This document shows, in pieces, positions 22,025-40,955 of a DNA stretch of 64,000 nt. The notes beneath the pieces are model-generated. The model searched no databases. It was not told where the DNA came from and worked only from the letters and a program-made list of their open reading frames with translations. The stretch is from Arcobacteraceae bacterium (GTDB lineage Bacteria; Campylobacterota; Campylobacteria; Campylobacterales; Arcobacteraceae): positions 18,757-82,756 of the forward strand of contig JBNKLC010000045.1 of NCBI GenBank assembly GCA_050292155.1, written 5' to 3'. Each line of letters begins with the position of its first letter. The first letter of the stretch is position 1. The translations under genes and the position numbers were made by a program.

Positions 22025-22054
22025 CTATTTCTAAATCTAAAAAAAAGGAAAAAA

Positions 22055-23604: not shown

Positions 23605-23750
23605 AATAAATAAAACGTATCCAAAACAAATTTGTAATAAACTTTAGATACAAAAAAATAAAAAATAAAAAATAAAATTGCAAAATGCCAAGTTTTTAAT
23701 TAAACTTTTTAATTTATGATATGATTGATAAAAAGAGGGAGGATAAGCTT

Positions 23751-24599
23751 ATGACAAAAGATATTATTCAAACATTAACATCTGATTTTGAGTCATTTGT
23801 AAATAAAACAGAAGATGGTGTGGAGTTTTGGTTAGCTAGGGATTTGCAACACCTTTTAGGATATACAAAATGGGATAATTTTAAAAATGTAATTTTTAAA
23901 GCAAAAACTGCTTGTGAAGTTTCAGGATATGAAATAGCAGATCATTTTGCCGATGTCGGGAAAACGATAGAGATGCCTAAAGGAGCTGTAAAAGAGATTG
24001 ATGATTTAATGCTTACACGATATGCTTGTTATCTTATAGCTCAAAACGGCGATAGTAAAAAAGAGCAAATAGCATTTGCTCAAACGTACTTTGCTATTCA
24101 AACAAGAAAAGCTGAATTAATAGAGCAAAGAATACTAGAGTATGAAAGGGTAGAGGCAAGAGAAAAATTACAACAAACCGAAAAAGAGTTGTCAACGGTT
24201 ATCTATGAACAAACAGGCGGGAATCAAAATTTTGCAATTATTAGAAGTAAAGGAGATCAAGCATTATTTAATCATACTACGGCTCAAATGAAAGCAAAAT
24301 ATAAAATTAAAGAGAATAAACCATTGGCAGATTATATGCCTACGATTCTTCTAAAAGCTAAAGATTTTGCAACAGAAATCACTATCTATAATGCAAGAGA
24401 AAATAAAATGGATACAGAAAATAAAATTTCCAATGAACATATTACAAATAATAAAACAGTTAGAGATACGCTCATTTCAAGAGGGATTGTACCTGAAAAT
24501 TTACCACCGCAAGAAGATGTTAAAAAAGTAGAAAGAAAACTTAATTCTAATGATAAAAAAATGTTAAAAGATATTGGAGCGTTTAATAAAGAAGATTAG
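23751..24599 (+). CDS. dinD: DNA-damage-inducible protein D family
   Basis: EDGVEFWLARDLQHLLGYTKWDNFKNVI...LTRYACYLIAQNGDSKKEQIAFAQTYFAIQTRK matches the DinD N-terminal domain. ATG at 23751 is preceded by AGAGGGAGG. Confidence 0.75.
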   Translation: MTKDIIQTLTSDFESFVNKTEDGVEFWLARDLQHLLGYTKWDNFKNVIFKAKTACEVSGYEIADHFADVGKTIEMPKGAVKEIDDLMLTRYACYLIAQNGDSKKEQIAFAQTYFAIQTRKAELIEQRILEYERVEAREKLQQTEKELSTVIYEQTGGNQNFAIIRSKGDQALFNHTTAQMKAKYKIKENKPLADYMPTILLKAKDFATEITIYNARENKMDTENKISNEHITNNKTVRDTLISRGIVPENLPPQEDVKKVERKLNSNDKKMLKDIGAFNKED

Positions 24600-24613
24600 T
24601 TAAAATCAATTTA

Positions 24614-25498: not shown

Positions 25499-26404
25499 AT
25501 GTATAAAGAAATAGCAATCATAGCACCAACTGCATCGGGGAAAACCGATCTTTCCATCGAACTTGCCCATAAAACAGATTCTATTATCCTCTCTTTGGAT
25601 TCATTAGCCGTTTACAAAGAGATAGATATCGCTTCGGCAAAACCAACTTTACAAGAGAGAGACGGGATAGTACACTTTGGGATTGATGAGGTGTATCCAA
25701 ATGAACAGTTTGATGTAATAGAATTTATAGAGTGTTATAAAAGAGCAAAAGAGTTTGCTGTCAAAAATGGTAAAAATCTTATTATAGTGGGTGGAACAGG
25801 TTTTTATTTAAAAGCGATGCTTGATGGCATTTCCCCTGCACCTATTATTACAACTGAGATAGAAAAAAAAGTACAAGATACTTTGATGGATTTAAACGGT
25901 GCCTATGATTTTTTAGAAAATATCGACCCAATCCATATGAAAAAAATAGAAAAAAATGATAGATATAGGATAGAAAAAGCTTTGGAGATATGTTTTGGCT
26001 CAGGTTTAAGCCCAACGGAGTATTTTGGAAAAAATAAACCAAAACCGATAATTAATGATTTAAAAATATTTCAAATTGAAACAGATGTGGAACTTTTAAG
26101 GGGGAGAATAGCTAAAAGAACAAAAAAAATGTTACAAAACGGAATCATTGATGAGGTAATTTATTTAGAAAAAAACTATACAAGAGCACCAAAATGTATG
26201 AAAAGTATAGGTATTGTTGAAACATTGGATTATCTTGACGGAAAAATTGATAAAAAAAGATTGGAAGAACTCATCTCTACACATACTGCACAACTTGCAA
26301 AAAGACAAAGAACCTTTAACAGATCGCAGTTTACAAATGTACTAAAAGGCGATTTGAACACTTTAAAAGATAAAATCCCTCATGAAATGAAGTGTTGCGT
26401 ATAG
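25499..26404 (+). CDS. miaA: tRNA dimethylallyltransferase
   Basis: P-loop APTASGKT and SLDSLAVYKEIDIASAKP, 301 aa. Confidence 0.88.
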   Translation: MYKEIAIIAPTASGKTDLSIELAHKTDSIILSLDSLAVYKEIDIASAKPTLQERDGIVHFGIDEVYPNEQFDVIEFIECYKRAKEFAVKNGKNLIIVGGTGFYLKAMLDGISPAPIITTEIEKKVQDTLMDLNGAYDFLENIDPIHMKKIEKNDRYRIEKALEICFGSGLSPTEYFGKNKPKPIINDLKIFQIETDVELLRGRIAKRTKKMLQNGIIDEVIYLEKNYTRAPKCMKSIGIVETLDYLDGKIDKKRLEELISTHTAQLAKRQRTFNRSQFTNVLKGDLNTLKDKIPHEMKCCV

Positions 26405-26490: not shown

Positions 26491-26523
26491 GCCGACTCTT
26501 CTGATGGGAGTCGGCTTATTTTT
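26491..26523 (+). terminator. intrinsic terminator-like hairpin immediately upstream of the nuoA ribosome-binding site
   Basis: 8-bp GC-rich stem GCCGACTC / GAGTCGGC (26491-26498 and 26508-26515) with a 9-nt loop, followed by TTATTTTT, then AAGGGG and the nuoA ATG at 26535. Confidence 0.6.
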
Positions 26524-26534: not shown

Positions 26535-26924
26535 ATGGAACATTCTAACTTTGTGCATCCGTACTTCGGTGCTTTTGTTATGTTTGTATTAACATTTGGA
26601 GCGTTTATCGCTACAACGGTAGCGGCAAGATTTGTAAGTAGAAAACTTGCAAGAAGAAATACCGAAAAATTAAAAACTACACTGTATGAGTGTGGACCAG
26701 AGGTTACAAAACAGCCTAATACTATCTCGGTACAGTTTTATCTTATGGCACTTTTATTTATTTTATTTGATGTGGAGATTATCTTTATGTTTCCATGGGC
26801 AGTGGATTTTAAAGTGCTTGGATGGTTCGGTTTTATTGAGATGTTATTATTTATCTTATTATTGGCAATCGGATTTATCTACGCTTGGAAAAAAGGAGCA
26901 CTAGAATGGCACAGCATAAAGTAA
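26535..26924 (+). CDS. nuoA: NADH:quinone oxidoreductase subunit A
   Basis: 129 aa, 3 TM. YECGPE and [11 protein letters not shown] motifs. Confidence 0.92.
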
Positions 26925-27415
26925 ACTACTTTAGAGAAGGTGGAGAAGCGATAAAGCTAACTACTGTTGATAAAATAGTCAATTTTGGTAGAAGTAACTC
27001 TTTATGGCCTATGACTTACGGTCTTGCATGTTGTGCAATTGAGATGATGGCAAGTGGTGGTTCAAGGTTTGACTTTGATAGATTCGGTACGATCTTTAGA
27101 GCATCTCCAAGACAATCGGACGTTATCGTAGTTGCAGGAACTTTGACAAAAAAACACGCAGAATTTATGAGAAGATTATACGATCAAATGCCTGATCCAA
27201 AATGGGTAATCTCTATGGGATCATGTGCAAATACAGGCGGTATGTTTAATACTTATGCAACGGTTCAAGGTGTAGATAGGGTAATCCCAGTGGATATCTA
27301 TCTTCCAGGTTGTGCCCCTCGACCTGAGACTTTACAGTTTGCATTGATGATGTTACAAAAGAAAATAAGAAGAGAGCCTGCAGGTATGGCTCAAAGAGCA
27401 AAAAGGTTGATATAG
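26906..27415 (+). CDS. nuoB: NADH:quinone oxidoreductase subunit B
   Basis: [15 protein letters not shown] and LPGCAPRPE (N2 cluster ligands). ATG at 26906 is preceded by AAGGAG. Confidence 0.93.
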
Positions 27416-28237
27416 ATGAGAGCATATACATCAAAAGATAACGTACAAAAAAAATCGTACTACAACGATAGATTTTACGTAACACCGACACTTAAAAGAA
27501 AAAGTGTTTACGATGATTCTACCTTTAGCAGTGATTACGGTAGTTTAAAAAATATTGTAGAGATAAAAGAAGCTTATATTGAATTAGACCATTTGGTTGT
27601 TATTATAAATCCAGAGGAGAATATCAAAGCAATCGAACATTTAAAAAAGATTCGAGCTTACGATATGATGATGGAGCTTACGGCAGTTGATTATGTAGCT
27701 TCCAAGGGTGGTTTTGAGATAGTTTACGAACTTCTTTCAACTACAAAAAGAAAAAGAATCCGAGTAAAAGCTTTTATCAACAACGGCGACGCAATCAACT
27801 CTGTGGAAAAACTTTTTAGAATGGCAAACTTTAGTGAGCGTGAGATGTATGATATGTATGGAATCTACGTAAACAATCACTCTTACCTTAAAAGAATCCT
27901 TATGCCTGATGATTGGCAGGGACATCCTTTGCTTAAAACATATCCACTTCAAGGGGATGAAGCGTCAAATTGGTATGAGGTTGATAAGATTTTTGGTAAA
28001 AAAGCAAGAGATATTATCGGACCTGAACTTAGAGATGCAGCATGTGTAGATAGATATGATAGTGAAAGATTTGCAAGACTTGGTCATGAAGTTCCGTTTG
28101 GTACGGAGATTAGTGAAGGGAATGAACCTGATACACCTATCAGGTACCAAGAAGAGGGTGGAGTAAAACTCTTTGGTGCGACATTGGTTACACCGTTTGA
28201 TAAAAAAGAAACAAAACAATTGAAAGAGAGAAAGTAG
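27416..28237 (+). CDS. nuoC: NADH:quinone oxidoreductase subunit C
   Basis: FSEREMYDMYGIYV motif, 273 aa with terminal extensions. Confidence 0.88.
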   Translation: MRAYTSKDNVQKKSYYNDRFYVTPTLKRKSVYDDSTFSSDYGSLKNIVEIKEAYIELDHLVVIINPEENIKAIEHLKKIRAYDMMMELTAVDYVASKGGFEIVYELLSTTKRKRIRVKAFINNGDAINSVEKLFRMANFSEREMYDMYGIYVNNHSYLKRILMPDDWQGHPLLKTYPLQGDEASNWYEVDKIFGKKARDIIGPELRDAACVDRYDSERFARLGHEVPFGTEISEGNEPDTPIRYQEEGGVKLFGATLVTPFDKKETKQLKERK

Positions 28238-29464
28238 ATGCAAGTTACCAATAGATTAAAACCTTTCTTTGAAAATATTGCGTTTGAACGTGAAGATAAC
28301 ACAATGGTTGTAAACTTCGGTCCGCAACACCCTTCAGCTCACGGTCAGTTACGACTTATGCTTGAACTTCAAGGGGAAGAGGTAGTAAAAGCACATCCTG
28401 ATATCGGATATCTTCATAGAGGTATTGAAAAAATGGGTGAAAATATGATCTATAACGAATTCTTACCTACAACGGATAGAATGGATTATATTGCGGCAAC
28501 AGCCAATAACTACGGATATGCACACGCAGTTGAACAACTACTAGGCATTGAGGTTCCAAGACGGGCAGAGATTATTAGAACAATGTTGCTTGAGCTTAAT
28601 AGAATTATCTCTCATCTTTTTTGGTTGGCAACCCATGCACTTGATGTGGGTGCAATGTCTGTTTTCCTTTATTGTTTCCGTGAGAGAGAATTTGCAATGG
28701 ATTTGATGGAGGATTATTGTGGAGCTAGACTTACCCATTCGGCAGTTAGAATCGGTGGAGTTCCTTTAGATCTTCCTTTAGGATGGTTGGGAAATCTTAA
28801 AAAATTTATCGATACTTTAGATGAGCAGATTAATGTTTACGAAGGGCTTTTAACCGAAAATAGAATTTGGAAAATGAGACTTGAAAATGTAGGTACCTTA
28901 ACTCCTGAGACGGCAAAAGAGTGGGGATGCAGCGGACCTACCCTTCGAGGAAGCGGAGTAAAATGGGATTTACGAAAAGAGATGCCTTACGGTATCTATC
29001 CTGAACTTGATTTTAATATTCCTATTTCAGATAAATGTGATTCGTATGGAAGATATAAGTGTTATATGGCAGAGATGAGAGAATCTATGAAAATCTTAGA
29101 GCAGCTTATTCCTATGTACCATGAAAGCGATACACAGCTTATGGCTCATGCACCTCAGTATATCTCTGCAACAAAAGAGGATATGATGACGCAAAACTAC
29201 TCTTTGATGCAACACTTTGTCCTTGTAACACAAGGGATGAGACCACCTGTTGGAGAAGTGTATGTTGCGACAGAATCTCCAAAAGGGGAACTTGGGTTTT
29301 ATATTGTAAGTGACGGTTCGCCTTATCCATATAAATTAAAATGTCGGGCACCTAGTTTTTGGCATACTGGATTATTACAAGATTTACTACCGGGGCACCA
29401 ATTAGCCGATGTTGTTACTATTATCGGTAACCTTAATATTGTATTTGGGGAGATTGACAGGTAA
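28238..29464 (+). CDS. nuoD: NADH:quinone oxidoreductase subunit D
   Basis: [24 protein letters not shown], and C-terminal [14 protein letters not shown]. Confidence 0.94.
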
Positions 29465-29745
29465 TGAAACGATATGATTTAAGAGGGCATAAAGAGAATT
29501 TTATCCCTAGAATGGTTGAATTGATGGGTAGTGAAATCAAAGAGGGAGAAAATGCTGTTTTTCTTTTTGAGATTGGAGATTTTAGTTCTGTCCAAGCAGC
29601 GGCAGATGTAGTAAAAGAGAATAACTGGAGATTAATGAATTCGTTAAAATTCAATGAAGTTGATTGGACTATTATCGTAAAAAAAGAGCAGCCTCCTATC
29701 GATGAGCTTCCTGAAACTACGCAAGAGGAAGAAGCTACAGAGTAA
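29464..29745 (+). CDS. small Cys-free protein occupying the nuoE position (Cj1575c/HP1264-like placement)
   Basis: 93 aa with no cysteine, so no 2Fe-2S site. ATG overlaps the nuoD stop (TAATG). Acidic C-terminal tail. Its position matches the NuoE-replacing small ORF of Campylobacter and Helicobacter. Confidence 0.65.
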   Translation: MKRYDLRGHKENFIPRMVELMGSEIKEGENAVFLFEIGDFSSVQAAADVVKENNWRLMNSLKFNEVDWTIIVKKEQPPIDELPETTQEEEATE

Positions 29746-29771
29746 CGGCTCTATAGTTAAAGGAATTTGTT

Positions 29772-31784
29772 TTGAGTAAAGTGTATTATTCTAATTGGCA
29801 GGGTGAAGTAATAGATAATAGAGGTGTGTCCGTTGAAGAGTGGGCTGAATCTTCTGTTAAATTACCTGTTAGTTATACAAAAGAATCGGCAACAAAAGCA
29901 TTTGTCGGATGGGACGGATTTGCTCTTTTTGATGAAACTGTAGATGTTGTAAAACTTGCGATGAATTATGCAAGGCAATATCAAGAGTACAGTGAAGCTT
30001 GTGGAAGATGTACACCTGGACGTTGGGGTGGACAAATCTTGTTTGATATGATTGATAAAATTGCCAGAGGCGAAGGGGAGTATAGTGATTTAGCACATAT
30101 CAAAGAGGTAAGCAGCACTATGCAGCAAACCAGTAAATGTGAAATCGGTAAAACGGTTCCAACTCCGATTTTAGGGATGATTGGATCATTTGAAGAGCAA
30201 TTTATTTCACTCATTAAAAATAAAACCAAATCGCCGTGGTATGAAAATGACGATTCAAAATATATTGCAAATGTAACTGCTCCTTGTACAGATATGTGCC
30301 CGGCTCACGTAGATATCCCGGGATATATTGAAGGGGTTAGGGAGCTTGATTTTGAAAACTCTTTAAAGTCTACAAGACAAACTATGCCTTTGGCTCATAC
30401 GTGCGGAAGAGTTTGTCCCCACCCTTGTGAAGATGCGTGTAGAAGAGGAAATCTTGACGAACCTATTTCTATTATGGAACTTAAAAGAATCGGAGCAGAT
30501 TATGAAAGCGATCATGAACTCGAATGGTTCCATCCAATTAAGCCCAAAAAACCAAAAAATGACGGAAAAAAAGTAGCAATTATCGGTGCGGGACCTGCTG
30601 GACTTACGGCAGCTTATTATCTTGGAGTTGAAGGTATCGAAGTAAAGATTTTTGAAGAGCTTCCCGTACTTGGCGGAGAGGTTGCCGTGGGAGTACCGGA
30701 ATATAGAATGCCGGTTGATAAATATAATATAGATATTAAGCTGGTTGAAGATTTACCTACGGTTGAAATTATTAGAAACCATAGAGTAGACAGTGAGAGA
30801 CTTACAGAGATTTATGAAGAGTTTGATGCAACACTTCTTGCTTTTGGTGCACGTCTTTCTAAAAAAATTAGATGTGAAAATGAAGATCCAAGTTACGAGG
30901 GTTACTGGGGAGCAATCGATATGCTCGATAAGGTAAACCTTTGGAATAAGTATGGTATCGGAGAATCTGCAGCAAATGACCTTAAAGATAAAACCGTTGT
31001 ATGTGTAGGTGGTGGATTTACCTCTATGGACGTTGTAAGATGTTCTATTAGAGAGGGTGCAAAAAGAGTTGTAATGCTTTATAGAAGAGATGAAAAAACA
31101 ATCATTAGAAATACGACACTTGAAGAGTACACCGAAGCTGTTGAAGAGGGAGTAGAGTTTATTTTCTATTCTGCAATCGATACGATTATTGATGACAATG
31201 GAAAGATAACGGCAGTTATCGTGGATAAATACGAGCAGGTTCCAGATCCTGATGGTGGAAGACCGCAACTTGTAAAAATTGAAGGGGCTTCTGAAAAAAT
31301 CGAGTGTGATTATGTAGTTCCTGCGGTATCTCAAGCACTTGATTTACAAATTTTACCTAAAGAGTGGGATATAGAGATGACATCGTGGTCATCGATCCAA
31401 ACCAACGGGAAAGATTATATGACAAATAAGCCTGGACTTTTTGCAGCAGGAGACTGTGAATACGGTCCAATGACCATCGTAAATGCAGTAGGTCAAGCAA
31501 AACGTGCCGCTTCGGTAATCGGTAGATATATTTATGACGGTAAGATTTCATTATTGGATAATGAGATTATGGAAGACCATATGAATAAAATGAAAGTCTA
31601 CAATAAAGCCGAAAAAATCACGGGATGGATGCCAGGACTTCCAAGAGAAGAGAGTGAAAAACTTTCAGCAGCAGTAAGACGAGATAATAACAAAGAGGTA
31701 AATCTTGGATTCACTGCAGAGGAAGCTAGAGCTGAAGCTGAGCGATGTATGCGGTGTTATTATTTAGGGATGGTGGCAGTATGA
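29772..31784 (+). CDS. FAD/FeS oxidoreductase in the nuoF position: NuoF-C-terminal-like domain fused to a GltD/NfnB-type NAD(P)H-binding module
   Basis: N-terminal ACGRCTPGRWGG...KCEIG resembles the NuoF N3-cluster domain, with the third Cys replaced by Gly. This is followed by CTDMCPAHVDIPGYI, CGRVCPHPCEDACRRG, VAIIGAGPAGLTAAYYL, LGGEVAVGVPEYRMP, VVCVGGGFTSMDVV and FAAGDCEYGP. C-terminal tail AEERCMRCYY-type CxxC. TTG start. Confidence 0.75.
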   Translation: MSKVYYSNWQGEVIDNRGVSVEEWAESSVKLPVSYTKESATKAFVGWDGFALFDETVDVVKLAMNYARQYQEYSEACGRCTPGRWGGQILFDMIDKIARGEGEYSDLAHIKEVSSTMQQTSKCEIGKTVPTPILGMIGSFEEQFISLIKNKTKSPWYENDDSKYIANVTAPCTDMCPAHVDIPGYIEGVRELDFENSLKSTRQTMPLAHTCGRVCPHPCEDACRRGNLDEPISIMELKRIGADYESDHELEWFHPIKPKKPKNDGKKVAIIGAGPAGLTAAYYLGVEGIEVKIFEELPVLGGEVAVGVPEYRMPVDKYNIDIKLVEDLPTVEIIRNHRVDSERLTEIYEEFDATLLAFGARLSKKIRCENEDPSYEGYWGAIDMLDKVNLWNKYGIGESAANDLKDKTVVCVGGGFTSMDVVRCSIREGAKRVVMLYRRDEKTIIRNTTLEEYTEAVEEGVEFIFYSAIDTIIDDNGKITAVIVDKYEQVPDPDGGRPQLVKIEGASEKIECDYVVPAVSQALDLQILPKEWDIEMTSWSSIQTNGKDYMTNKPGLFAAGDCEYGPMTIVNAVGQAKRAASVIGRYIYDGKISLLDNEIMEDHMNKMKVYNKAEKITGWMPGLPREESEKLSAAVRRDNNKEVNLGFTAEEARAEAERCMRCYYLGMVAV

Positions 31785-34057
31785 GTGAACGGGTACAACA
31801 TAGAGGAAAACTAATTACTATCACTATTGATGGACGTGAATGTCAAGGTGTTTACGGTCAAACTATTTTAGAGATTGCAAGAAAAAACGATATTTATATC
31901 CCTACAATGTGTTACCTTACAAAGGTTTCGCCTATAACATCGTGTAGGATGTGTGTGGTTGATGTTGCAGGTGTTGAAGGTAATGTTCTTTCGTGCCAAG
32001 AAAAAGCGGTGGATGGTGCCGTAATCACTACAAATAACGAAGAGCTTTTCAGACATAGACAAAATATTATGAAAATGTATGATGTAAATCATCCGTTGCA
32101 GTGTGGAGTTTGTGATAAAAGTGGAGAGTGTGATCTTCAAAATAAAACTTTGGAATTTGGTGTCGATTCACAAGAATTTGCATTAAAAGAACCTGCAAGA
32201 AAAAAGAAAAAATGGGGTATCTTAGGATATGATCCGTCACTTTGTATCATGTGTGAAAAATGTGTTCATACGTGTAACGAAGTAATTGGAAGTGCAGCTC
32301 TTTATGTAAAACCGGGTGGTTATAAATCTATTATCGATATTAAGATGAGTAGGTGTGAACAGTGTGGAGATTGTATCTCCGTATGCCCTGTCGGAGCACT
32401 TGTTTCAAATGAATACAAATACACTTCAAATGCTTGGGAATCGAAAAAAATCCCTGCTACATGTGCACATTGTAGTAGTGGATGTTCTCTTTATTATGAT
32501 GTAAAACATGCCGGTGTTTCTAATCCTTATGAGAAAAAAATCACGAGAGTAACAAACGACTCTGAATTTAGCGAACTTTGTGGAGCCGGTAGATTTGGAT
32601 TTGAGTTTGAAAATAAAGGAGATGTAAAAGATCCTGAGAAGTTAGCTCGTGCGGTGGAAGCTATCAAATCAAGTGATGTAATCTCTTTTAATTCTTATAT
32701 TACAAACGAAGAAGCTTTTATATTGCAAAAAATTAAAGAGCAAACGGGGATTAGACTTTGGAATGACGATGCAAATTTTTATAAAAAATTTATGGATGAG
32801 TATTCAAAAGTAAGCGGTCGAACTTTATATAGTGCAACAAACGAAACTATAAGAGATAGTGATGCAGTTATTATGATAGGAACAAGAATTTCAAGAGATA
32901 ATCCAGTGGTAAAATATGCTGCAAATATTGCCGTCAAAACAAAAAGGGCAAACTTTATCTATATGCACCCGATTGATGATATAAATCTGCAAAACAAATA
33001 CAACCAATTTGTAAAATATGAAGCGGGAAGCGAAGAGGGTGTAATTGCTCTTCTTGCTTCATATTTGGTTGAAAATGTTCCAAGTAAATATGAGAGTTTT
33101 TTTGATGAACTTGATATCGGTAATTTAAGCGGAGATTGTAATGTGGGCGAAGAGGAAATGGAGGCTGTTGTTAAAAAACTTACAAGAAGTAAGAATAAAA
33201 CTTTAGTAATCGGCGAAGACCTTTATGCCCATAAAAGAGCGAAAAACATTGCCAAAATTGTAGGGCTTATTGAAAAGTACACTGACTTTAACGTGATGAT
33301 TATCCCATCTCAAACAAATACTTTAGGGGTAAGTTTGATTTGTGATTTGGATGAAAAGGGCGGCGATAAAGTTGTGGGGTATAATGAAGTTGGAGATTTT
33401 ATCATTTCAAGCGAGGGTCTTGGAGATATAGAGGTACCTGCACTGAACCAACAAGAGGGGACTTTTACTTCGATTGATAAAAAAGTTCTGAATACAAATG
33501 TTGCTTTGGCTTTTGAGGGGTATTGTTTAAATGATATTGCCAATGCCCTTTTAGGTACAACAGTTGCACATACGATTGATTATACTAAAAATTTACCATC
33601 CTCAAAAGGGTTTCAAGCAGTGGAATTCGATTCTTTAGGAAATGGATACGATAGATATGGAAACGACCAAAGAGGATATAAATTAGAAGAGGGTGTTAAT
33701 GAATCTGAGATTGTAGAGATTGAAGAGATAGCTGAAATTGGAACTTATAACGGTACGGTTATTTATAGATGTGAACCGTTACATCAATTTAATCCAAATA
33801 CCGCAAAGTCGTTAAAACTTCAAACAGACAAAAGTCTTAGAGGGAGTGCAGCCTTTGCAACTGCTGCAAAGATAAAAGACGGCGATACAGTTACGATAAG
33901 CTATAATAACAAGTTTGTAACAAGAAAATTTAAAATAGAGAAGGCGATCAAAGGTACGATTGCATTATGTCCAACATTTGATGATCCATTGGAAGATGGA
34001 GCAGTAACTTTTGGATATAGATTTAAGCAAGTACAAATTAATAAGGTTGAAGCATAA
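31781..34057 (+). CDS. nuoG: NuoG-like FeS subunit, paralog 1 (N7-type Cys motif intact)
   Basis: 2Fe-2S CYLTK..CRMCVVDV..LSCQ, HPLQCGVCDKSGECDLQ, CIMCEKCVHTC, CEQCGDCISVCPVGAL, plus CAHCSSGCS...ELCGAGRF. ATG at 31781 overlaps the upstream stop (ATGA). Confidence 0.85.
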   Translation: MSERVQHRGKLITITIDGRECQGVYGQTILEIARKNDIYIPTMCYLTKVSPITSCRMCVVDVAGVEGNVLSCQEKAVDGAVITTNNEELFRHRQNIMKMYDVNHPLQCGVCDKSGECDLQNKTLEFGVDSQEFALKEPARKKKKWGILGYDPSLCIMCEKCVHTCNEVIGSAALYVKPGGYKSIIDIKMSRCEQCGDCISVCPVGALVSNEYKYTSNAWESKKIPATCAHCSSGCSLYYDVKHAGVSNPYEKKITRVTNDSEFSELCGAGRFGFEFENKGDVKDPEKLARAVEAIKSSDVISFNSYITNEEAFILQKIKEQTGIRLWNDDANFYKKFMDEYSKVSGRTLYSATNETIRDSDAVIMIGTRISRDNPVVKYAANIAVKTKRANFIYMHPIDDINLQNKYNQFVKYEAGSEEGVIALLASYLVENVPSKYESFFDELDIGNLSGDCNVGEEEMEAVVKKLTRSKNKTLVIGEDLYAHKRAKNIAKIVGLIEKYTDFNVMIIPSQTNTLGVSLICDLDEKGGDKVVGYNEVGDFIISSEGLGDIEVPALNQQEGTFTSIDKKVLNTNVALAFEGYCLNDIANALLGTTVAHTIDYTKNLPSSKGFQAVEFDSLGNGYDRYGNDQRGYKLEEGVNESEIVEIEEIAEIGTYNGTVIYRCEPLHQFNPNTAKSLKLQTDKSLRGSAAFATAAKIKDGDTVTISYNNKFVTRKFKIEKAIKGTIALCPTFDDPLEDGAVTFGYRFKQVQINKVEA

Positions 34058-36507
34058 TGGACAATATGATTAATATAACTATTAACGGCAAAGAGTGTCA
34101 AGCAAAAGAGGGAGAGTTTATCCTGAACGTTGCACGGGCGAACGGTATCTTTATACCTGCTGTTTGTTACCAAACAAAATGTACACCAACTCTAGCGTGT
34201 AGATTGTGTTTGGTTGAAGCAGATGGGAAGCAAGTATACGCTTGTAATGCAAAAAGTAAAGATGGGATGGTTATCGAAGTTAATACACCAAACATCGAAC
34301 AAGAAAGACGTGCAATTATGGAGGTTTACGATGTAAACCATCCTCTGCAGTGTGGAGTATGTGACCAAAGCGGAGAGTGTGAACTTCAAAACTATTCGCT
34401 TTATATGGGCGTAGATTCACAAAACTATGCGGTTAAAGACGTGCATAGACCAGCATCAAATTGGGGAGTAATGAAATATGACCCGGGTCTTTGTATCGTG
34501 TGTGAAAAGTGTGTGACTATCTGTAAAGACATGATAGGATCAAATGCCCTTGGAACCGTAAAAAGAGGTGCGGATGCCCTTGATAAAGCATATAAAGAAG
34601 CTATGCCAAAAGATGCGTATGCGATGTGGAATAAACTGAATAAAAACCTTATTGGATTTGAGGAAGAAAAATGTATCGATTGTGGAGAGTGTATCTCTGT
34701 TTGTCCTGTCGGTGCACTTGTAAGTTCGGATTTCCAATATAAATCAAATGCTTGGGAGCTTACAAAAATTCCTGCATCAAATCCATACAGCTCAGATTGT
34801 TCATTAATGTACTACGAAGTAAAACACGACTCAATTGAAAACAATAAAGAGAAAAAAATATATAGAGTAACAAATGATGCACACTATGTATCTTTAAACG
34901 GAGCGGCTCGATTTGGATTTGACTATGTAAATAAAGCGGATAAAGATGAAGCGGCATTTACAAAAGCGGTAGAAGCATTACAAGGTGCAGATTCAATTTT
35001 ATTTAATTCATTTATTACAAATGAAGAGGCAAAAATTCTTCAATCTATCAAAGAAAAAACGGGTGCAAAACTTATAAATATGGATGCATTCAAATTCAAA
35101 GAGTTTTTAAATAATTACTCTAAAATAACTGGAGAAAGTTTTTATAAAGGAACTTTAGAAGATATTCACAACAGTGATTTTTTAATCTCTCTTGGATCAT
35201 TTTTAAAATCAGATGCTCCGAGTGTAAAATATGCGTTCAACAATGCAATAGGGATGAATAAAGGTGCAGGACTTTATTTTCATCCAATGGGAGATAAGCA
35301 TATCGAAGGACTTGGGAAAAAAGGCAAAACAATTGAGACAATTGCTACAAATCCTTTATCCGAAGAAGCCGTATTATATTTTATCCTTGATCAATTTGGA
35401 GAAAATCTCCCTGAAGATATTGCAAAATATGTTGCAGGTTTTCAAGAACAAAGAACAAAAACTGTAACGGAAACAATCAAAGAAACAGTAGAAGAAACGG
35501 TTGTCGATCCGGAAACGGGAGAGGAATCTGTTCAAAAGAAAGTTGTCCCTAAAAAAGTTGAAAGTGAAATTACTTACAAATACACAAAACTGCTTGAGCT
35601 GATGGGGGCTGATGAATCATTGCTTGAAACAATCGAAGCGATGCTTGCAAAAAAAGAAAAATTCAGCTTAATTATCGGAGAAGATTGTATCAATCATCCA
35701 AATAGTGAAAATATAGCAAAACTTGTCGGAATGGTTGAAAAATATACGAAATTTACGGTCCTTATTATACCGTCGCAAACAAATACTTTAGGGGTAAGCT
35801 TACTTTGCGATCTTGATGTGATAGCAAACGGTACAACGGTTGGATACAATATGGCAGCAGATTATCAAATGAGTGCGTTAGGCGACGGAGATATCGATAT
35901 GCCTGTACTTTCACAACAAGAGGGGACTTTTGTAAATATCGATAAAAGAGTTGTCCCTACAAATGCGGCAGTTGCTTATAACGGATATTCTCTCAACGAT
36001 ATTGCAAATGAAATTTTAGATAATAAAAAAGAAAATACCATTGAATATACAACTGAAATATTTAAAGGGATTGCATTTGATGATTTGGAAAATCGGTATA
36101 CAAATGATAGAGTCGAACATAGAGGATATATTTTAGAAGCGTTACAAACCGAAACAAACGAGAGTGTGAATACCGAGATAAAATCACTTGAAAAATCCCA
36201 AAGTGAGTATATAATTTACAATGCAAATCCAATAAATCAATTTAATGAGTTTAGTGCGCTCTCCCATCAACTAAAAGATGATATAGTTGCTTTACATATT
36301 TCAGATGAGTTGGCTGCAAAACTTGAAGTTGAGGCAAACGGAAGCGTAGAAGTAACGGCAAATAAAACAACTATTGCATTACCTGTAGTAGTTGATAACA
36401 ACCTTATCGGGGAGATTGCCTATGTTCCGACATTTGAAAAAAATTCTCAAACTAAAAACTTATTTGACAACTGTAGATTTGCTACAGCAAATATAAAAAA
36501 GGTGTAA
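34057..36507 (+). CDS. nuoG: NuoG-like FeS subunit, paralog 2 (N7-type Cys motif lost)
   Basis: CYQTK..CRLCLVEA..YACN, HPLQCGVCDQSGECELQ, CIVCEKCVTIC, CIDCGECISVCPVGAL. The N7 region reads ASNPYSSDCS...SLNGAARF. ATG overlaps the paralog 1 stop (TAATG). Confidence 0.85.
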   Translation: MDNMINITINGKECQAKEGEFILNVARANGIFIPAVCYQTKCTPTLACRLCLVEADGKQVYACNAKSKDGMVIEVNTPNIEQERRAIMEVYDVNHPLQCGVCDQSGECELQNYSLYMGVDSQNYAVKDVHRPASNWGVMKYDPGLCIVCEKCVTICKDMIGSNALGTVKRGADALDKAYKEAMPKDAYAMWNKLNKNLIGFEEEKCIDCGECISVCPVGALVSSDFQYKSNAWELTKIPASNPYSSDCSLMYYEVKHDSIENNKEKKIYRVTNDAHYVSLNGAARFGFDYVNKADKDEAAFTKAVEALQGADSILFNSFITNEEAKILQSIKEKTGAKLINMDAFKFKEFLNNYSKITGESFYKGTLEDIHNSDFLISLGSFLKSDAPSVKYAFNNAIGMNKGAGLYFHPMGDKHIEGLGKKGKTIETIATNPLSEEAVLYFILDQFGENLPEDIAKYVAGFQEQRTKTVTETIKETVEETVVDPETGEESVQKKVVPKKVESEITYKYTKLLELMGADESLLETIEAMLAKKEKFSLIIGEDCINHPNSENIAKLVGMVEKYTKFTVLIIPSQTNTLGVSLLCDLDVIANGTTVGYNMAADYQMSALGDGDIDMPVLSQQEGTFVNIDKRVVPTNAAVAYNGYSLNDIANEILDNKKENTIEYTTEIFKGIAFDDLENRYTNDRVEHRGYILEALQTETNESVNTEIKSLEKSQSEYIIYNANPINQFNEFSALSHQLKDDIVALHISDELAAKLEVEANGSVEVTANKTTIALPVVVDNNLIGEIAYVPTFEKNSQTKNLFDNCRFATANIKKV

Positions 36508-36510
36508 AAG

Positions 36511-37470
36511 ATGGATAATGATATTATAATGACGCTTGTTAAAGTATTAGTTATTTTACTTGTATTTTCTGCTTTAGCAGGGTTTACGACTTATATTGAA
36601 AGAAAAGTCTTGGCATTTATGCAAAGACGACCCGGACCTATGCATGTGGGACCGTTTGGACTTTTACAAATTTTAGCAGACGGTGCAAAACTCTTTACAA
36701 AAGAAGATTTTATCCCGCAACATGCGAATAGACTTATTTTTATGATTGCACCTGTTATCACTGCTGCGACTGCATTTATTGCAATGACGGCAGTTCCTTT
36801 TGTACCGGGTGTAATCGTATCGGATGTAAATGTCGGGGTACTTTTTGTCCTTGGTGTGATGGCAACCGGACTTTACGGACCACTTCTTGGAGGGATGTCT
36901 CAAGCAAATAAATGGGGACTTCTTGGAGGAGCTAGAACTGCGATTCAGCTTCTTTCTTACGAGGTTGTAACGGGACTTTCACTTTTAGCTCCTCTTATGT
37001 TGGTTGGTTCATTATCTTTAATCGATATCAATAACTACCAAGCAGGTGGAGTCGGCAATTGGATTCTTTGGACGCAACCTGTCGCATTTTTTTTATTTTT
37101 AATTGCAGGTTATGCAGAGACAAATAGAACACCGTTTGATCTTTTAGAGCATGAAGCGGAAGTTATCGCAGGATATGCAACTGAGTATTCTGGAATGAGA
37201 TGGGGTATGTTTTTTATCGGGGAGTATGCAAATCTATTTACAATTTCATTTTTAACTTCACTTATCTTTTTAGGTGGATTTAACGATTTATGGTTTATCC
37301 CAGGAGCAATTGCAATTATACTTAAAGTTATGTTTTTAATTTTCTTATTCCTTTGGACAAGAGCTTCTTGGCCGCACGTAAGACCTGATCAACTTATGTG
37401 GTTATGTTGGAAAATATTAATGCCTTTAGCCCTATTAAATATTTTAGTTACGGCTATCGTGGTAATTTAG
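36511..37470 (+). CDS. nuoH: NADH:quinone oxidoreductase subunit H
   Basis: ERKVLAFMQRRPGP and GYATEYSGMRWGMFFIGEY, 8 TM. Confidence 0.93.
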   Translation: MDNDIIMTLVKVLVILLVFSALAGFTTYIERKVLAFMQRRPGPMHVGPFGLLQILADGAKLFTKEDFIPQHANRLIFMIAPVITAATAFIAMTAVPFVPGVIVSDVNVGVLFVLGVMATGLYGPLLGGMSQANKWGLLGGARTAIQLLSYEVVTGLSLLAPLMLVGSLSLIDINNYQAGGVGNWILWTQPVAFFLFLIAGYAETNRTPFDLLEHEAEVIAGYATEYSGMRWGMFFIGEYANLFTISFLTSLIFLGGFNDLWFIPGAIAIILKVMFLIFLFLWTRASWPHVRPDQLMWLCWKILMPLALLNILVTAIVVI

Positions 37471-37477
37471 GGGTTGA

Positions 37478-38104
37478 ATGATGAGTTTTAAAGAATTAAA
37501 AGAGAGAAACGTAGGATCTCAAGAATATATGATGATGGATATTAAAGAGTATCCAAAATCGGGATGGCAGGAATTTAAACAGATCGTTGGTCGAGGTTTA
37601 AAAAACGAGCTTTTTAAAGGTCTTGGGATTACTTTTAAGATAATGAAAGAGGTGGTATTTCAAGGGAAAACCCATAATACACTTTATCCAATTGAAAAAC
37701 TTCCAATAAGCCCAAGATATAGAGCAGTACATAAACTATTAGCATTACTTGAAAGCGGTCATAATAGATGTATCGGATGTGGACTTTGTGAAAAAATCTG
37801 TATCGCTAAATGTATTAGAATGGATACAAAAATCGATGAAAATTCAAGAAAAGAGGTTAGCGAGTATACAATTAATCTCGGACGTTGTATTTTTTGTGGA
37901 TATTGTGCAGAAGTTTGTCCAGAACTTGCGATTGTTCACGGAGGAAGATATGAAAATTCCAGTGAACAAAGGGAGCATTTTGTCTTAAAAGAGGATCTTT
38001 TAACACCGTTTGACAAATTGGCAGCCCAAGTTGAATACGACGGTTTTGGATCGGTTTCACAAGATGCAGATAAAAAAATCAAAAAAACGCCATTGGCATA
38101 TTAA
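37478..38104 (+). CDS. nuoI: NADH:quinone oxidoreductase subunit I
   Basis: Two 4Fe-4S motifs, CIGCGLCEKIC and CIFCGYCAEVCP, with an N-terminal extension. Confidence 0.92.
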   Translation: MMSFKELKERNVGSQEYMMMDIKEYPKSGWQEFKQIVGRGLKNELFKGLGITFKIMKEVVFQGKTHNTLYPIEKLPISPRYRAVHKLLALLESGHNRCIGCGLCEKICIAKCIRMDTKIDENSRKEVSEYTINLGRCIFCGYCAEVCPELAIVHGGRYENSSEQREHFVLKEDLLTPFDKLAAQVEYDGFGSVSQDADKKIKKTPLAY

Positions 38105-38107
38105 GGA

Positions 38108-38692
38108 TTGATAATGTTTGAAGTAGTAGCTTTTTACCTTTTTGCTTTTTTAACAATAGCAATGTTTTTAGTCACGGTTAGGACTAAAAATGCACTTTAT
38201 GCACTAAGTTCACTTGCAGCAGGTATGATCTTTATCTCTGCATTTTTCTTCCTTTTGGGAGCGGAATTCTTAGGTGCCGTACAAATTGTAGTATACACAG
38301 GAGCAGTTATGGCTCTATATGCTTTTGGTATGATGTTCTTTGATTCGATTAATGATGTAAAAGAATCGGTAGCAAATCCGAGATTGACATTTATGCTGAC
38401 AGGGATTGTTGCACTGTTGGTAGTGTCTATTTTTATTGCACCTATTATAGGAGCAAACGTAACTGCACACTATCCAGTGCATGAAGCATACGGTAATACA
38501 CAAGATATCGGTTTAGTATTATTTACAAAATATTTAGTTCCGTTTGAAGTTGCGGCAGTTATGCTTTTGGTTGCAATGATCGGTGGAATTATTTTAGCAG
38601 GAAAACAAATGGATGTATCAATTACCGAGATGAGTGAGACTGAAATTGACCACCATAGAACAGATACAGAGATTGCAAAGGATATCAAATGA
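38108..38692 (+). CDS. nuoJ: NADH:quinone oxidoreductase subunit J
   Basis: 194 aa hydrophobic, VQIVVYTGAVMALYAFGMM, in operon position. Start TTG 38108 or ATG 38114. Confidence 0.85.
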   Translation: MIMFEVVAFYLFAFLTIAMFLVTVRTKNALYALSSLAAGMIFISAFFFLLGAEFLGAVQIVVYTGAVMALYAFGMMFFDSINDVKESVANPRLTFMLTGIVALLVVSIFIAPIIGANVTAHYPVHEAYGNTQDIGLVLFTKYLVPFEVAAVMLLVAMIGGIILAGKQMDVSITEMSETEIDHHRTDTEIAKDIK

Positions 38693-38994
38693 GTATTACG
38701 TTAAATGATTATTTAATACTTAGTACTATTATCTTTATGATAGGGATGTACGGAGCATTAAGAAGAAAAAATTTATTAATGTTGTTTTTCTCAACGGAGA
38801 TAATGTTAAATGCAGTCAATATCGGAATGGCTGCAATTTCTAAATTTCACGGCGATCTTACGGGGCAGATGTTTGCATTTTTTGTAATTGCAATTGCTGC
38901 AAGTGAAGTTGCTATTGGATTGGGATTATTGATTTTATGGTTTAAAAGACACAATACTATCAATCTTGATTCACTACAAAGTATGAAGGGGTAA
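38689..38994 (+). CDS. nuoK: NADH:quinone oxidoreductase subunit K
   Basis: 101 aa, 3 TM, FFSTEIMLNAVN and AASEVAIGLGLL. Confidence 0.9.
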   Translation: MSITLNDYLILSTIIFMIGMYGALRRKNLLMLFFSTEIMLNAVNIGMAAISKFHGDLTGQMFAFFVIAIAASEVAIGLGLLILWFKRHNTINLDSLQSMKG

Positions 38995-38996
38995 GG

Positions 38997-40943
38997 ATGG
39001 AAAGTTATTTATATATTGCACTGTTTGCTCCACTTGTCGGATCACTCTTTGCAACATTATTTGGAAACACTCCAAAAAAATTATTTGTAGGGGTAATAAC
39101 TTCTGCATTATTAGCGGTATCTTTAGGGGCATCATTTAGTCTTTTAATGCATGTTTACCTTACAGATACGGTAATTCATGTAAGGATGCTTGATTGGATT
39201 GTGATCGGTAATGTGGATATCCCTTTTGGATTTATTGTTGATCCGGTGAGTGTTGTGATGATGGTTGTCGTAACAACGGTTTCCACTATGGTACATATAC
39301 ATTCAATCGGATATATGGACCACGATAGAAGCTTTAATAGATTTTTTGCTTGGTTATCGGCGTTTGTTTTTTCTATGATGATTCTGGTCATGAGTGACAA
39401 CTTTGCAGGACTATTTATCGGATGGGAAGGTGTTGGACTTTGCTCTTGGGGACTTATTGGTTTTTGGTATCATAAAAAAGATGTTGCAAGAAGCAAAGAT
39501 ATTATGGAGTCTCCTTTTTCAACATTGTCTCCATATTCATCCCCATCTCCGTCATGGGCGGCAAATGAAGCATTTATTATGAATAGAGTTGCCGACCTTG
39601 CGATGTTGATTGGATTATTCTTAATCTTTTGGAATATTGGAAGTTTACAATATGATGAAGTATTTGCAAAAATCGGATCGCTTGATCATGGTTTGATTAT
39701 CGCAATCGGTGGTTTCCTTTTTGTGGGTGCAATGGGTAAATCTGCACAATTTCCTTTTAATACATGGCTTGCAAATGCAATGGAAGGTCCTACCCCGGTA
39801 TCGGCGCTTATCCATGCAGCGACAATGGTAACGGCAGGTGTTTATTTGGTGGTTCGAGCAAATGAAATTTTTACCGTTATCCCTGAAGTTGGATATGTGA
39901 TTGCAACTGTCGGTTCTATTGTAGCAATGGGAGCTGCTGCTATGGCATTAGTTGCTACCAATATGAAAAAAATCATTGCATTTTCAACACTTTCACAACT
40001 TGGATATATGTTTGTTGCAGCAGGACTTGGAGCGTATTGGGTAGCCTTATTCCATCTGGCAACACACGCATTTTTCAAATCGGTATTATTCTTAGGTGCA
40101 GGAAATGTAATGCATGCGATGAATGATGAGATTAGTATCAAAAAAATGGGTGGATTATATAAATATATGCCTCGTACCGGATTTATTATGATAGTGGCTT
40201 CAATTGCCCTTGCCGGGATTTTCCCGTTTGCAGGATTCTTTTCAAAAGATTTAATCCTTGAGGTTGCTTTTGGAACACACCATCTTGTTATTTGGGGAGT
40301 ATTATGGATAACAGCAGGACTTACTGCATTTTATTCTTTTAGAATGGTTATGTATATTTTCTTTGGAGAAGAAAAATGGAGCCATAATAAAGAGGATGAA
40401 AATTATCAACATCCACATGAAGCATATTGGTATGTTATTGCTGCGATGACCCCTCTTGCGATAGTGGCATTTATCGGAGGATGGTTTAAAGAGTTCTACG
40501 TAAGCATGATAACAAAAACATTACCGGAACTTGAAATTCACGTGCATCACGATACACTGAATATTTTAATAGCAATTACATTGGCAATAGCCCTTGGAGG
40601 TATTGCATTAGCCGTGTTTAAATTTAAAAAAGACGGTACCTATTTTAGCGGAACATTTAAAAATAGACCATGTTACAAACTTTTGGCAAACCAATATTTT
40701 TTGAACCATTTTTGGGAAAATGCAGTTTCAAAACCTTACGGTAAACTTGCAGAATTTAGTTGGAAAGAACTTGATTTAAAAATTATTGATACTATTGTCG
40801 ATGGAATCGCAAAAGGTATCTATAGTGGAGGGGAAGCAGGAACCGCAATCCAATCTGGTAACCTCTCAAAAGCATTAAAATGGATGGGAATCGGTATTCT
40901 TATCTTAATAATTTTAGCCGTTGCATTTGGCAACTTAAAATAA
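38997..40943 (+). CDS. nuoL: NADH:quinone oxidoreductase subunit L
   Basis: 648 aa antiporter-like subunit, GWEGVGLCSW and MGKSAQFPFNTWLANAMEGPTPVSALIHAATMVTAGVY. Confidence 0.93.
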   Translation: MESYLYIALFAPLVGSLFATLFGNTPKKLFVGVITSALLAVSLGASFSLLMHVYLTDTVIHVRMLDWIVIGNVDIPFGFIVDPVSVVMMVVVTTVSTMVHIHSIGYMDHDRSFNRFFAWLSAFVFSMMILVMSDNFAGLFIGWEGVGLCSWGLIGFWYHKKDVARSKDIMESPFSTLSPYSSPSPSWAANEAFIMNRVADLAMLIGLFLIFWNIGSLQYDEVFAKIGSLDHGLIIAIGGFLFVGAMGKSAQFPFNTWLANAMEGPTPVSALIHAATMVTAGVYLVVRANEIFTVIPEVGYVIATVGSIVAMGAAAMALVATNMKKIIAFSTLSQLGYMFVAAGLGAYWVALFHLATHAFFKSVLFLGAGNVMHAMNDEISIKKMGGLYKYMPRTGFIMIVASIALAGIFPFAGFFSKDLILEVAFGTHHLVIWGVLWITAGLTAFYSFRMVMYIFFGEEKWSHNKEDENYQHPHEAYWYVIAAMTPLAIVAFIGGWFKEFYVSMITKTLPELEIHVHHDTLNILIAITLAIALGGIALAVFKFKKDGTYFSGTFKNRPCYKLLANQYFLNHFWENAVSKPYGKLAEFSWKELDLKIIDTIVDGIAKGIYSGGEAGTAIQSGNLSKALKWMGIGILILIILAVAFGNLK

Positions 40944-40955
40944 GGAAGGGGAAGT

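Follow-up and report, generated by a model that had tools for sequence, protein, structure and literature searches.

The window analysed here is a stretch of 64,000 nucleotides from an Arcobacteraceae bacterium (contig JBNKLC010000045.1). It contains a complete nuo operon (26535–43966, + strand) encoding respiratory complex I, with the gene order nuoABCD-nuoX-F*-G1-G2-nuoHIJKLMN and a terminator-like hairpin at each end. The four genes between nuoD and nuoH encode NuoX, the iron–sulphur (FeS) flavoprotein F* and two paralogs of NuoG, which we call G1 and G2. We regard it as fairly probable, on comparison of the sequences, that G2 is the core NuoG and that F* and G1 constitute a co-inherited NAD(P)H-linked module of a non-canonical complex I (type A below). 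The four genes are as follows.

29464–29745 (+): nuoX (E*), 93 amino acids (aa), Campylobacterota-specific, at the NuoE position; PF16514 NADH-UOR_E, E = 1.4e-34
29772–31784 (+): F*, FeS flavoprotein of 670 aa, NuoF position; Pfam NADH_4Fe-4S, Fer4_20 and Pyr_redox_2
31781–34057 (+): G1, short NuoG paralog, 758 aa; Pfam, NF006305, ligand set and fold match of the AlphaFold 2 (AF2) model
34057–36507 (+): G2, long NuoG paralog, 816 aa; Pfam, NF006305, ligand set and orthology to the single Helicobacter NuoG

Sequence and cluster ligands of the two NuoG paralogs

G1 and G2 are full-length tandem paralogs, as a sequence-only reading of this stretch had proposed, and are 41% identical over their full length (BLASTP, 338/827, E = 0). 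The open reading frame (ORF) of G1 opens at 31745 or 31781; the ATG at 31781 agrees with the starts of the orthologues and gives the length of 758 aa. Both proteins contain the Pfam domains Fer2_4, NADH-G_4Fe-4S_3 and Fer4, and both pass the NCBIfam NuoG equivalog model NF006305 (cut-off 591 bits) with 1081 bits for G2 and 880 bits for G1. The end-to-end alignment of G2 with this model is the basis, by profile and not by structure, for its C-terminal molybdopterin-oxidoreductase-like domain. The Pfam Molybdopterin domain was not detected in NuoX, F*, G1 or G2 of the window. The C-terminal domain of the AF2 model of G1 has a predicted local distance difference test (pLDDT) of 75–90, and Foldseek aligns the model to FdsA, to NuoG of E. 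coli and to Nqo3 of Thermus with TMq of 0.54–0.64. G1 is therefore a full NuoG-type protein with a MopB-like C-terminal domain, more than an FeS domain alone. The position in the operon also fits NuoG, with G1 directly 5′ of G2 and G2 directly 5′ of nuoH. The TGA stop of F* (31782–31784) overlaps the ATG of G1 (31781; gcagtATGAgt), and the TAA of G1 (34055–34057) has one base in common with the ATG of G2 (gcaTAATGgac). Such stop/start overlaps are common in nuo operons. The two that had been taken to imply co-translation are present, and suggest translational coupling without proving it.

The ligand sets are complete in both proteins for the three clusters N1b, N5 and N4. N1b, a [2Fe-2S] site, is C44-x10-C55-x2-C58-x13-C72 in G1 and C37-x10-C48-x2-C51-x11-C63 in G2; all motifs cited in the sequence-only reading are there, but its x13 spacing is exact for G1 only. 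N5 (H-x3-C-x2-C-x5-C) consists of H104, C108, C111 and C117 in G1 and of H95, C99, C102 and C108 in G2. N4 (C-x2-C-x2-C...CP) consists of C155, C158, C161 and C202 in G1 and of C146, C149, C152 and C216 in G2. Four more cysteines, which the sequence-only reading does not mention, are found in both proteins, one C-x3 past the first motif and three in a C-x2-C-x2-C motif ahead of the CP; in G2 they are C156, C206, C209 and C212. The ferredoxin-like domain thus has eight cysteines, enough for a second [4Fe-4S] cluster beside N4. The N7 motif, defined as C-x2-C-x3-C-(x27-31)-C at the start of the C-terminal domain, is present in G1 (C228-x2-C231-x3-C235-x31-C267), where it aligns to the equivalent cysteines in NuoG of Aquifex, the protein that gave the best sequence match in the PDB. 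G2 has N242, S245, S249 and N281 at the aligned positions.

Two inserts are found in G2. The first, of about 23 aa, lies in the ferredoxin domain between the two cysteine motifs (about residues 160–205). The second, of ~50 aa (about residues 462–512; window 35440–35590), is acidic and rich in E, K, V and T. Its sequence is kept across Arcobacteraceae, Sulfurovaceae, Sulfurimonadaceae and Nitratifractor, and it is cleanly missing in one Sulfurovum subclade and in one further locus (L042, with a G2 of about 775 aa). It behaves as a conserved yet dispensable surface element would. The insert had been described as repetitive; it is real, but tandem repetition at the DNA level is marginal. A random low-complexity or tandem-repeat expansion is ruled out by these weak DNA repeats together with the conservation of the peptide across families.

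Conservation, selection and ligand census

Relatives were recovered with G1 as query and comprise 80 species-level genome loci (L numbers below designate loci of the comparison). In 78 of them, from Arcobacteraceae, Sulfurovaceae, Sulfurimonadaceae and Nitratifractor, the genes stand in the order X-F*-G1-G2-nuoH, which also occurs in some Helicobacter. Every sufficiently long locus has nuoABCD-X-F*-G1-G2-nuoH-nuoI, with one exception, L029. F* and G1 overlap or are separated by at most 2 nt in 61/69 loci.

Pairwise dN/dS values (NG86) are 0.03–0.27 for G1 and 0.045–0.33 for G2 and are near-equal within each genome pair, about twice those of NuoD and NuoH (0.01–0.14). Both paralogs are under purifying selection and neither is decaying. 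That G1 is a decaying or redundant duplicate has nothing but the bare fact of duplication in its favour. Its dN/dS is nowhere near 1 and equals that of G2, the ligands of N1b, N5, N4 and N7 are invariant in 79 orthologues from at least four families, and database homologues number thousands that cover 100% of the G1 query. The selection values and the ligand invariance refute decay, which we regard as next to impossible.

The ligand census covered 79 G1 and 74 G2 sequences. The ligands of N1b, N5 and N4 are invariant in all of them (79/79 and 74/74). N7 is kept in 79/79 G1; among G2 sequences it is kept in 36/74 and lost in 38/74. The losses comprise the whole Arcobacteraceae-type clade, including the window (NS-type replacements), and some Sulfurovum (SSFD/AGFD type). 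The asymmetric loss of N7 noted earlier therefore holds for the window, where G1 keeps the site and G2 lacks it, but is specific to lineages. The extra [4Fe-4S] ligands behave in the opposite manner, being kept in 74/74 G2 and lost in 27/79 G1 (SxLA and xDLS types). Both copies retain the full set of ligands in about 19 loci, among which are those examined from Sulfurimonadaceae and Nitratifractor; this is probably the ancestral state. The census suggests a reciprocal rule, in which N7 is never lost in G1 and the extra [4Fe-4S] is never lost in G2. The single-copy G2-type NuoG examined keep both sites in every case.

Identification of the core NuoG

Representatives at 50% identity were searched with G2 and placed in a neighbour-joining tree with bootstrap. 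G1 and G2 form sister clades that are jointly separated from other NuoG-like proteins (100/100), and the NuoG of Helicobacter that have one copy, H. cetorum and H. himalayensis among them, groups with G2. The spacer between the cysteine motifs of the ferredoxin domain is 49–58 residues in every protein of the G2 clade, single-copy ones included, and 26–32 residues in G1 and all outgroups. The model NF006305 is collinear with G2, whereas it aligns to G1 in three pieces. G2-type genes adjoin nuoH in all loci seen. G2 is the orthologue of the single Helicobacter NuoG; the discrete spacer character settles this, together with synteny and profile collinearity.

Architectures and co-inheritance of F* and G1

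Five arrangements were distinguished among the loci.

Type A, X-F*-G1-G2: the window, 78/80 genome loci, Helicobacter sp. 12S02634-8 and one Helicobacteraceae metagenome-assembled genome (MAG)
Type B, X-NuoY-G2: H. cetorum (and H. pylori HP1265, by 75% identity), H. himalayensis, two other Helicobacter species and one gut metagenome contig
Type C, X-G2: L086 (4665–7460) and L089 (4436–7035)
Type D, F*-G1 as a lone pair with purK/purE on one side and selD-like genes on the other: L029:7980–12289
Type E, X, a divergently transcribed 338-aa Pyr_redox_2 flavoprotein, a 447-aa G1 lacking the N-terminal domain (G1-deltaN) and G2: L091:4686–7344 and L092:185–2848 (Sulfurovum)

F* and the FeS domain of G1 occur together in 83 loci and are jointly missing from 8–9, and no locus is discordant. 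The loci without both are H. cetorum, H. himalayensis, three other Helicobacter-type loci, L086, L089 and L091/L092. F* and the FeS domain of G1 are gained or lost as one unit. Where this unit is lost, the C-terminal half of G1 keeps its place in the operon in the form of NuoY or G1-deltaN; type C, without F*, G1 and NuoY, is the most reduced architecture seen. The 338-aa flavoprotein of type E has only weak YpdA/TrxR-like matches. The sequence-only reading had one paralog as the structural NuoG and the other, with the flavoprotein, as a possible add-on module for electron input or branching. Its core holds up on comparison. The first assignment fits G2, which groups with Helicobacter NuoG and abuts nuoH, and the co-occurrence of F* with the FeS domain of G1, like the lone pair of type D, fits the second; G1 is, however, more than an add-on, as its C-terminal half outlasts the FeS domain.

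The type D locus bears on whether F* and G1 are a separate soluble NAD(P)H:acceptor oxidoreductase, encoded in the nuo operon for co-regulation and not bound to complex I. In L029, a MAG labelled Sulfurospirillum, the pair has the same ATGA overlap and stands alone with purine and selenium metabolism genes on either side; no nuo genes are found within 8 kb upstream or 2.3 kb downstream. The top matches of the NuoG-type chain, FdsA, HydA and subunit A of NiFe-HydABCSL, are likewise NuoG-like subunits of soluble enzymes. Against this, 78/80 genomes hold the pair between nuoX and G2 with tight junctions, and the L029 copy of G1 falls inside the group of operon-encoded G1 from Arcobacteraceae, which suggests a recent split from the operon. 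The retention of the C-terminal half of G1 in place (NuoY or G1-deltaN) after loss of the module is also hard to explain for an unrelated soluble enzyme. We judge a soluble enzyme improbable.

NuoY as a truncated G1

Genes of the NuoY/HP1265 family were located in five loci and have no Pfam match.

NuoY/HP1265-family genes: L081:5006–6004, L083:4172–5008, L084:4159–5001, L085:4211–4987 and L090:5195–5992

In the protein database, H. cetorum NuoY found hardly anything but H. pylori sequences, a set too shallow for a profile. The profile was therefore built from six diverse sequences, taken from contigs that encode G2-type representatives. It aligns to the C-terminal region of G1 with a probability of 99.8% in hhalign (P = 5e-30, 309 columns). 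G2 and outgroup NuoG give scores of 75 and 65, respectively, and controls with F*, reversed and shuffled sequences stay below 0.5%. With hidden Markov models, NuoY sequences score 53–100 bits against the C-terminal model of G1 and 1–30 bits against that of G2. NuoY and G1 have in common the motifs MHP..D..YE(V/A)G(S/T)EEGV.ALLA, LD(I/V)GYLS.E.N..EEE and G.DLY.H, and a C-terminal barrel with NG.V.Y...LKGT(V/I)A. NuoY as a remnant of F* was ruled out, since BLASTP finds no similarity between the two. The 447-aa Sulfurovum G1-deltaN lacks the whole FeS N-terminal domain, is 34% identical to residues 293–756 of G1 (226 bits, compared with 135 to G2) and seems to stand midway between full G1 and NuoY. 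For the Helicobacter-type sequences it is thus well supported that NuoY/HP1265 is a truncated G1, reduced to part of its C-terminal half. No paper among those searched for Cj1574c and HP1265 states that NuoY derives from NuoG, an absence that is no proof of novelty. In C. jejuni, electron transfer with flavodoxin is reported to run through Cj1574c (NuoY) (Weerakoon & Olson 2008, as given in a citing paper). The Campylobacter counterparts of NuoY and NuoX have been discussed among core essential genes.

The reduced architectures also bear on whether the roles are swapped, with G1 at the canonical site and G2 accessory, or whether the two are isoforms that alternate at one site by condition. G1 is nearer to the outgroup NuoG in that it lacks the two inserts of G2, and it has an Aquifex NuoG-like cysteine spacing, and both copies pass the same NuoG equivalog model. 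However, in every reduced architecture the sole protein with a NuoG FeS chain is of the G2 type, and a relic of G1 stands beside it; the coexistence of relic and G2 argues for distinct sites. Alternating isoforms also fit poorly with two neighbouring genes that have a tight junction and, in S. denitrificans, similar expression levels, and reciprocal, non-overlapping ligand constraints argue against interchangeability. Both variants are, in our estimate, even less probable than a soluble enzyme.

The flavoprotein F*

F* combines an N-terminal NuoF-type N3 cluster domain (PF10589, residues 63–144) with a GltD/NfnB-type module (Fer4_20 and Pyr_redox_2, residues 160–590) for two [4Fe-4S] clusters, FAD and NAD(P)H. 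Its NCBIfam matches are NF009410, gltA/gltD-type models and the C-terminus of nuoF. The scores fall under the curated cut-offs for glutamate synthase small subunit/NfnB (378.6 against 516 bits for NF009410; 266 against 472 for TIGR01316), and F* is a relative with the same domains as GltD and NfnB that lies outside those equivalogs. A cysteine census of 72 orthologues found a conserved set compatible with two [4Fe-4S] clusters in the GltD-type part. The conserved tail at the C-terminus contains an invariant CxxC (C659 and C662), which might make a cluster complete. The curated family NF009454 (PRK12814, ‘putative NADPH-dependent glutamate synthase small subunit’) has matches in the GltD-type part of F* and, in both G1 and G2, at the N-terminal 2Fe-2S domain. 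As this family fuses a NuoG-type 2Fe-2S domain and a GltD-type module in one chain, such parts are wired together elsewhere. NuoX (PF16514) is found in every related locus, whatever the architecture. One MAG (L025) has F* in two ORFs of 302 and 457 aa, which is a frameshift or an assembly error.

Proposed electron path

In the arrangement we favour, G2 would occupy the canonical site, and its N1b-N4-N5 chain would feed NuoI and NuoB, the route common to all complex I. The invariant extra [4Fe-4S] of G2, beside the G2-specific 23-aa insert, would be the likely junction with additional partners. F*, with FAD, the NAD(P)H site, two [4Fe-4S] clusters and the N3-like domain, would form together with the N1b-N4-N5 chain of G1 an NAD(P)(H) arm to the core. 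The MopB-like C-terminal half of G1, with its invariant N7, would anchor this arm. It probably has a structural or docking site of its own, since it outlasts the loss of the flavoprotein and the FeS domain, and it may also be a dock for flavodoxin or ferredoxin, because NuoY is reported to act in flavodoxin electron transfer. We infer from the sequences that NuoX, F*, G1 and G2 are in one complex, as well as the order of the clusters, the nucleotide specificity and the linear or branched course of the path. The same applies to the direction, either NAD(P)H oxidation or the proton-motive-force-driven reduction of NAD(P)+ or ferredoxin. A linear path would make the enzyme an NADPH:menaquinone oxidoreductase with an extension cord, and a branched one would bifurcate to ferredoxin and NADP+, driven by proton motive force or based on flavin, along the lines proposed in bioRxiv 10.1101/717884.

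Several observations weigh against this arrangement. The N3-like domain of F* has three invariant cysteines only in the 72 orthologues (C77, C80 and C123; residues 77–123), and a glycine replaces the third cysteine of the NuoF CxxCxxC motif, so that the N3-type cluster may be different or absent. The FeS domain of the AF2 model of G1 is poor (pLDDT 25–45) and unusable for cluster distances or geometry. The bootstrap values of the separate G1 and G2 clades are weak (29/100 and 43/100), and it is therefore chiefly the indel, together with synteny and profile collinearity, that supports the orthology of G2. The independent ligand losses are few, perhaps about two per site, and the reciprocal pattern is not statistically strong. 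The placement of G1 and F* in the complex is deduced from the genes, and L029 could mean that F*-G1 acts as a soluble enzyme.

A more specific version of the favoured arrangement, compatible with it, is a branched, bifurcating or confurcating enzyme (the model of McNichol et al. or a Fix/Etf-like variant), in which the two NuoG chains are arms from one flavin/cluster junction. Such an enzyme would couple menaquinol, NAD(P)(H) and ferredoxin or flavodoxin, for example in a reaction driven by proton motive force from 2 MKH2 to NAD(P)H and two reduced ferredoxins for the reverse tricarboxylic acid (TCA) cycle. F* is NfnB-like (NADP(H)-binding and cluster ligands are conserved in Suden_1824, its S. 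denitrificans equivalent), and electrons might leave it by either of two domains, the 2x[4Fe-4S] one or the N3-like one. The homology of the C-terminal half of G1 to NuoY, the reported flavodoxin-interaction subunit, and the invariance of the extra cluster of G2 also fit, and autotrophic Sulfurimonas and Sulfurovum have no Rnf or known bifurcating complexes (bioRxiv 10.1101/717884). On the other side, bifurcation by NfnB requires NfnA, which is absent here, and type A is also found in host-associated Helicobacter and in Arcobacteraceae, which are not necessarily autotrophs. Moreover, the extra cluster of G1, the proposed connector to N7, is dispensable in one third of lineages. We consider branching conceivable but on the whole unlikely. 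Still more tentatively, the enzyme could be a three-way redox junction, in which the G2 wire leads to menaquinone, F* and the G1 FeS domain form the NADP(H) arm and the C-terminal half of G1 docks ferredoxin or flavodoxin, so that quinol, NADP(H) and ferredoxin would be coupled by proton motive force or bifurcation. This mechanism is speculative. If it is true, the series G1, G1-deltaN, NuoY and nothing records how host-associated lineages lost the NADP(H) arm step by step.

Comparison with known systems

The two-NuoG layout is already described for this clade, although it is not characterised biochemically, and the window holds nothing new in kind. The same layout, with NuoX, an NfnB/GltD-like substitute for NuoF and a short and a long NuoG, was reported for Sulfurimonas and Sulfurovum, where it is ‘universally conserved’ (bioRxiv 10.1101/717884); the preprint gives credit to Weerakoon & Olson 2008. 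F*, G1 and G2 correspond to Suden_1824, Suden_1823 and Suden_1822 of S. denitrificans. The preprint describes non-canonical NuoE/F, with Suden_1824 NfnB-like and its NADP(H)-binding and cluster ligands conserved, and two NuoG copies that are 36% identical and both expressed at similar levels. The short Suden_1823 lacks two regions of the long Suden_1822, residues 175–204 (between cysteine ligands) and 466–532 (bioRxiv 10.1101/717884). The suggestion that the duplication might be new for this clade does not survive, since the literature already has the duplication, both regions absent from the short copy, the replacement of NuoF by an NfnB-like protein and a branching hypothesis. The window agrees with the Sulfurimonas/Sulfurovum complex in gene order, in NuoX for NuoE, in the NfnB/GltD-like flavoprotein for NuoF and in the short-then-long NuoG (41% identical here), the long copy having an insert in the ferredoxin domain and one of ~60 aa. 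It differs in its uncultured Arcobacteraceae-like host and in the lack of the N7 cysteines in G2, whereas the Sulfurimonadaceae loci examined keep N7 in both copies.

The flavodoxin-dependent complex I of C. jejuni and H. pylori (NuoX/Cj1575c, NuoY/Cj1574c/HP1265 and a single NuoG) has the same NuoX (PF16514), a single NuoG orthologous to G2 and collinear nuoABCD and nuoH-N. In contrast to the window, it has NuoY in place of F* and the G1 FeS domain, and its G2-type NuoG always retains N7. The canonical NuoEFG (E. coli, T. thermophilus Nqo1-3 and Aquifex aeolicus 7Q5Y) has the same NuoG fold, N1b, N5 and N4 and the N7-type site seen in G1; the eight-cysteine ferredoxin domain is also found in Aquifex NuoG. 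The window lacks the thioredoxin-like 2Fe-2S subunit NuoE and the FMN/NADH-binding NuoF, has two NuoG instead of one, and F* retains only the N3-type domain of NuoF. No solved Campylobacterota complex I structure was among the PDB search matches.

The NADPH-dependent FeS flavoproteins of the NfnB/GltD/DPD type have the Fer4_20 and Pyr_redox_2 domains and the cysteine set for two [4Fe-4S] clusters in common with F*. F* differs in its N-terminal NuoF N3 domain and conserved CxxC tail, and no NfnA/GltB gene is nearby. FdsA of NAD-dependent formate dehydrogenase and two subunits of bifurcating hydrogenases, HydA of HydABC and subunit A of NiFe-HydABCSL, rank first by both fold and sequence (9ktl_A, 6tg9_A, 7t2r_A and 8a6t_A). 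In these enzymes NuoG-type FeS wires serve as connectors in modular, at times bifurcating, assemblies; the molybdopterin or hydrogenase catalytic site is not evident in the window proteins. NUO-2 of Nitrospina gracilis and Kuenenia stuttgartiensis is likewise a modified complex I with altered NuoF and NuoG, extra FeS clusters and a proposed reverse ferredoxin reduction. There, however, the extra ferredoxin-type clusters lie inside a single NuoF2 and NuoG2, without a duplicated NuoG and a GltD-like flavoprotein.

Chemolithoautotrophic Campylobacterota dominate primary production in sulfidic habitats, and their reverse TCA cycle depends on a supply of reduced ferredoxin and NAD(P)H. The mechanism by which they make low-potential reductant is undemonstrated, and the two-NuoG operon is the standing candidate (bioRxiv 10.1101/717884). 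Two NuoG genes here will not surprise a specialist; the ligand reciprocity, the reduction series and the NuoY–G1 homology sharpen testable hypotheses on the reductant question. They provide handles for experiments, namely the core NuoG (G2), the inherited unit (F* and the FeS domain of G1) and the indispensable sites (N7 in G1 and the extra [4Fe-4S] in G2), and they offer an evolutionary origin for the unexplained NuoY/HP1265 of the Helicobacter-type complex I.

The operon and its surroundings

The remaining features of the operon are listed in order.

26491–26515 (+): terminator-like hairpin, 5′ operon boundary; 10-bp stem with 6 GC pairs, then a T-run
26535–26924 (+): nuoA; Pfam Oxidored_q4, E = 3.5e-34
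26885–27415 (+): nuoB (N2 cluster subunit); Pfam Oxidored_q6, E = 2.2e-28
27416–28237 (+): nuoC; Pfam Complex1_30kDa
28238–29464 (+): nuoD; Pfam Complex1_49kDa, E = 1.3e-106
36511–37470 (+): nuoH; Pfam NADHdh, E = 2.4e-109
37478–38104 (+): nuoI (N6a/N6b ferredoxin subunit); Pfam Fer4 and Fer4_7, operon position
38108–38692 (+): nuoJ; Pfam Oxidored_q3
38689–38994 (+): nuoK; Pfam Oxidored_q2
38997–40943 (+): nuoL; Pfam Proton_antipo_N and Proton_antipo_M
40956–42482 (+): nuoM; Pfam Proton_antipo_M
42482–43966 (+): nuoN, 494 aa; position and length, no Pfam basis
43975–43998 (+): terminator-like hairpin, 3′ operon boundary; 10-bp stem, then a T-run, 9 nt past the nuoN stop

The longest ORF of nuoB begins with TTG, and the true start may be further downstream. 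Homologous loci have a third PF00361 protein of 485–490 aa at the position of nuoN. The 5′ hairpin ends the upstream gene for a miaA-like isopentenyl pyrophosphate (IPP) transferase (ORF 25499–26404, Pfam IPPT). A promoter scan gave 58 sites, compared with 73.9 expected, and was uninformative. A megablast search of plasmids with both nuoG genes gave no match, which places the nuo region on a chromosome and not on a known plasmid; the genes flanking the operon are ordinary chromosomal genes. The closest genome matches are uncultured Campylobacterota/Arcobacteraceae MAGs with 73–83% identity. A small bacterial signal recognition particle RNA (Rfam RF00169, 49 bits) is located at 44081–44177, ~80 nt past the nuo terminator. 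A few kilobases upstream of the operon, a patch of low GC content (22000–24600; 27% compared with about 35%) contains a BRO-N domain protein (23721–24599) and may be a mobile-element or phage remnant.

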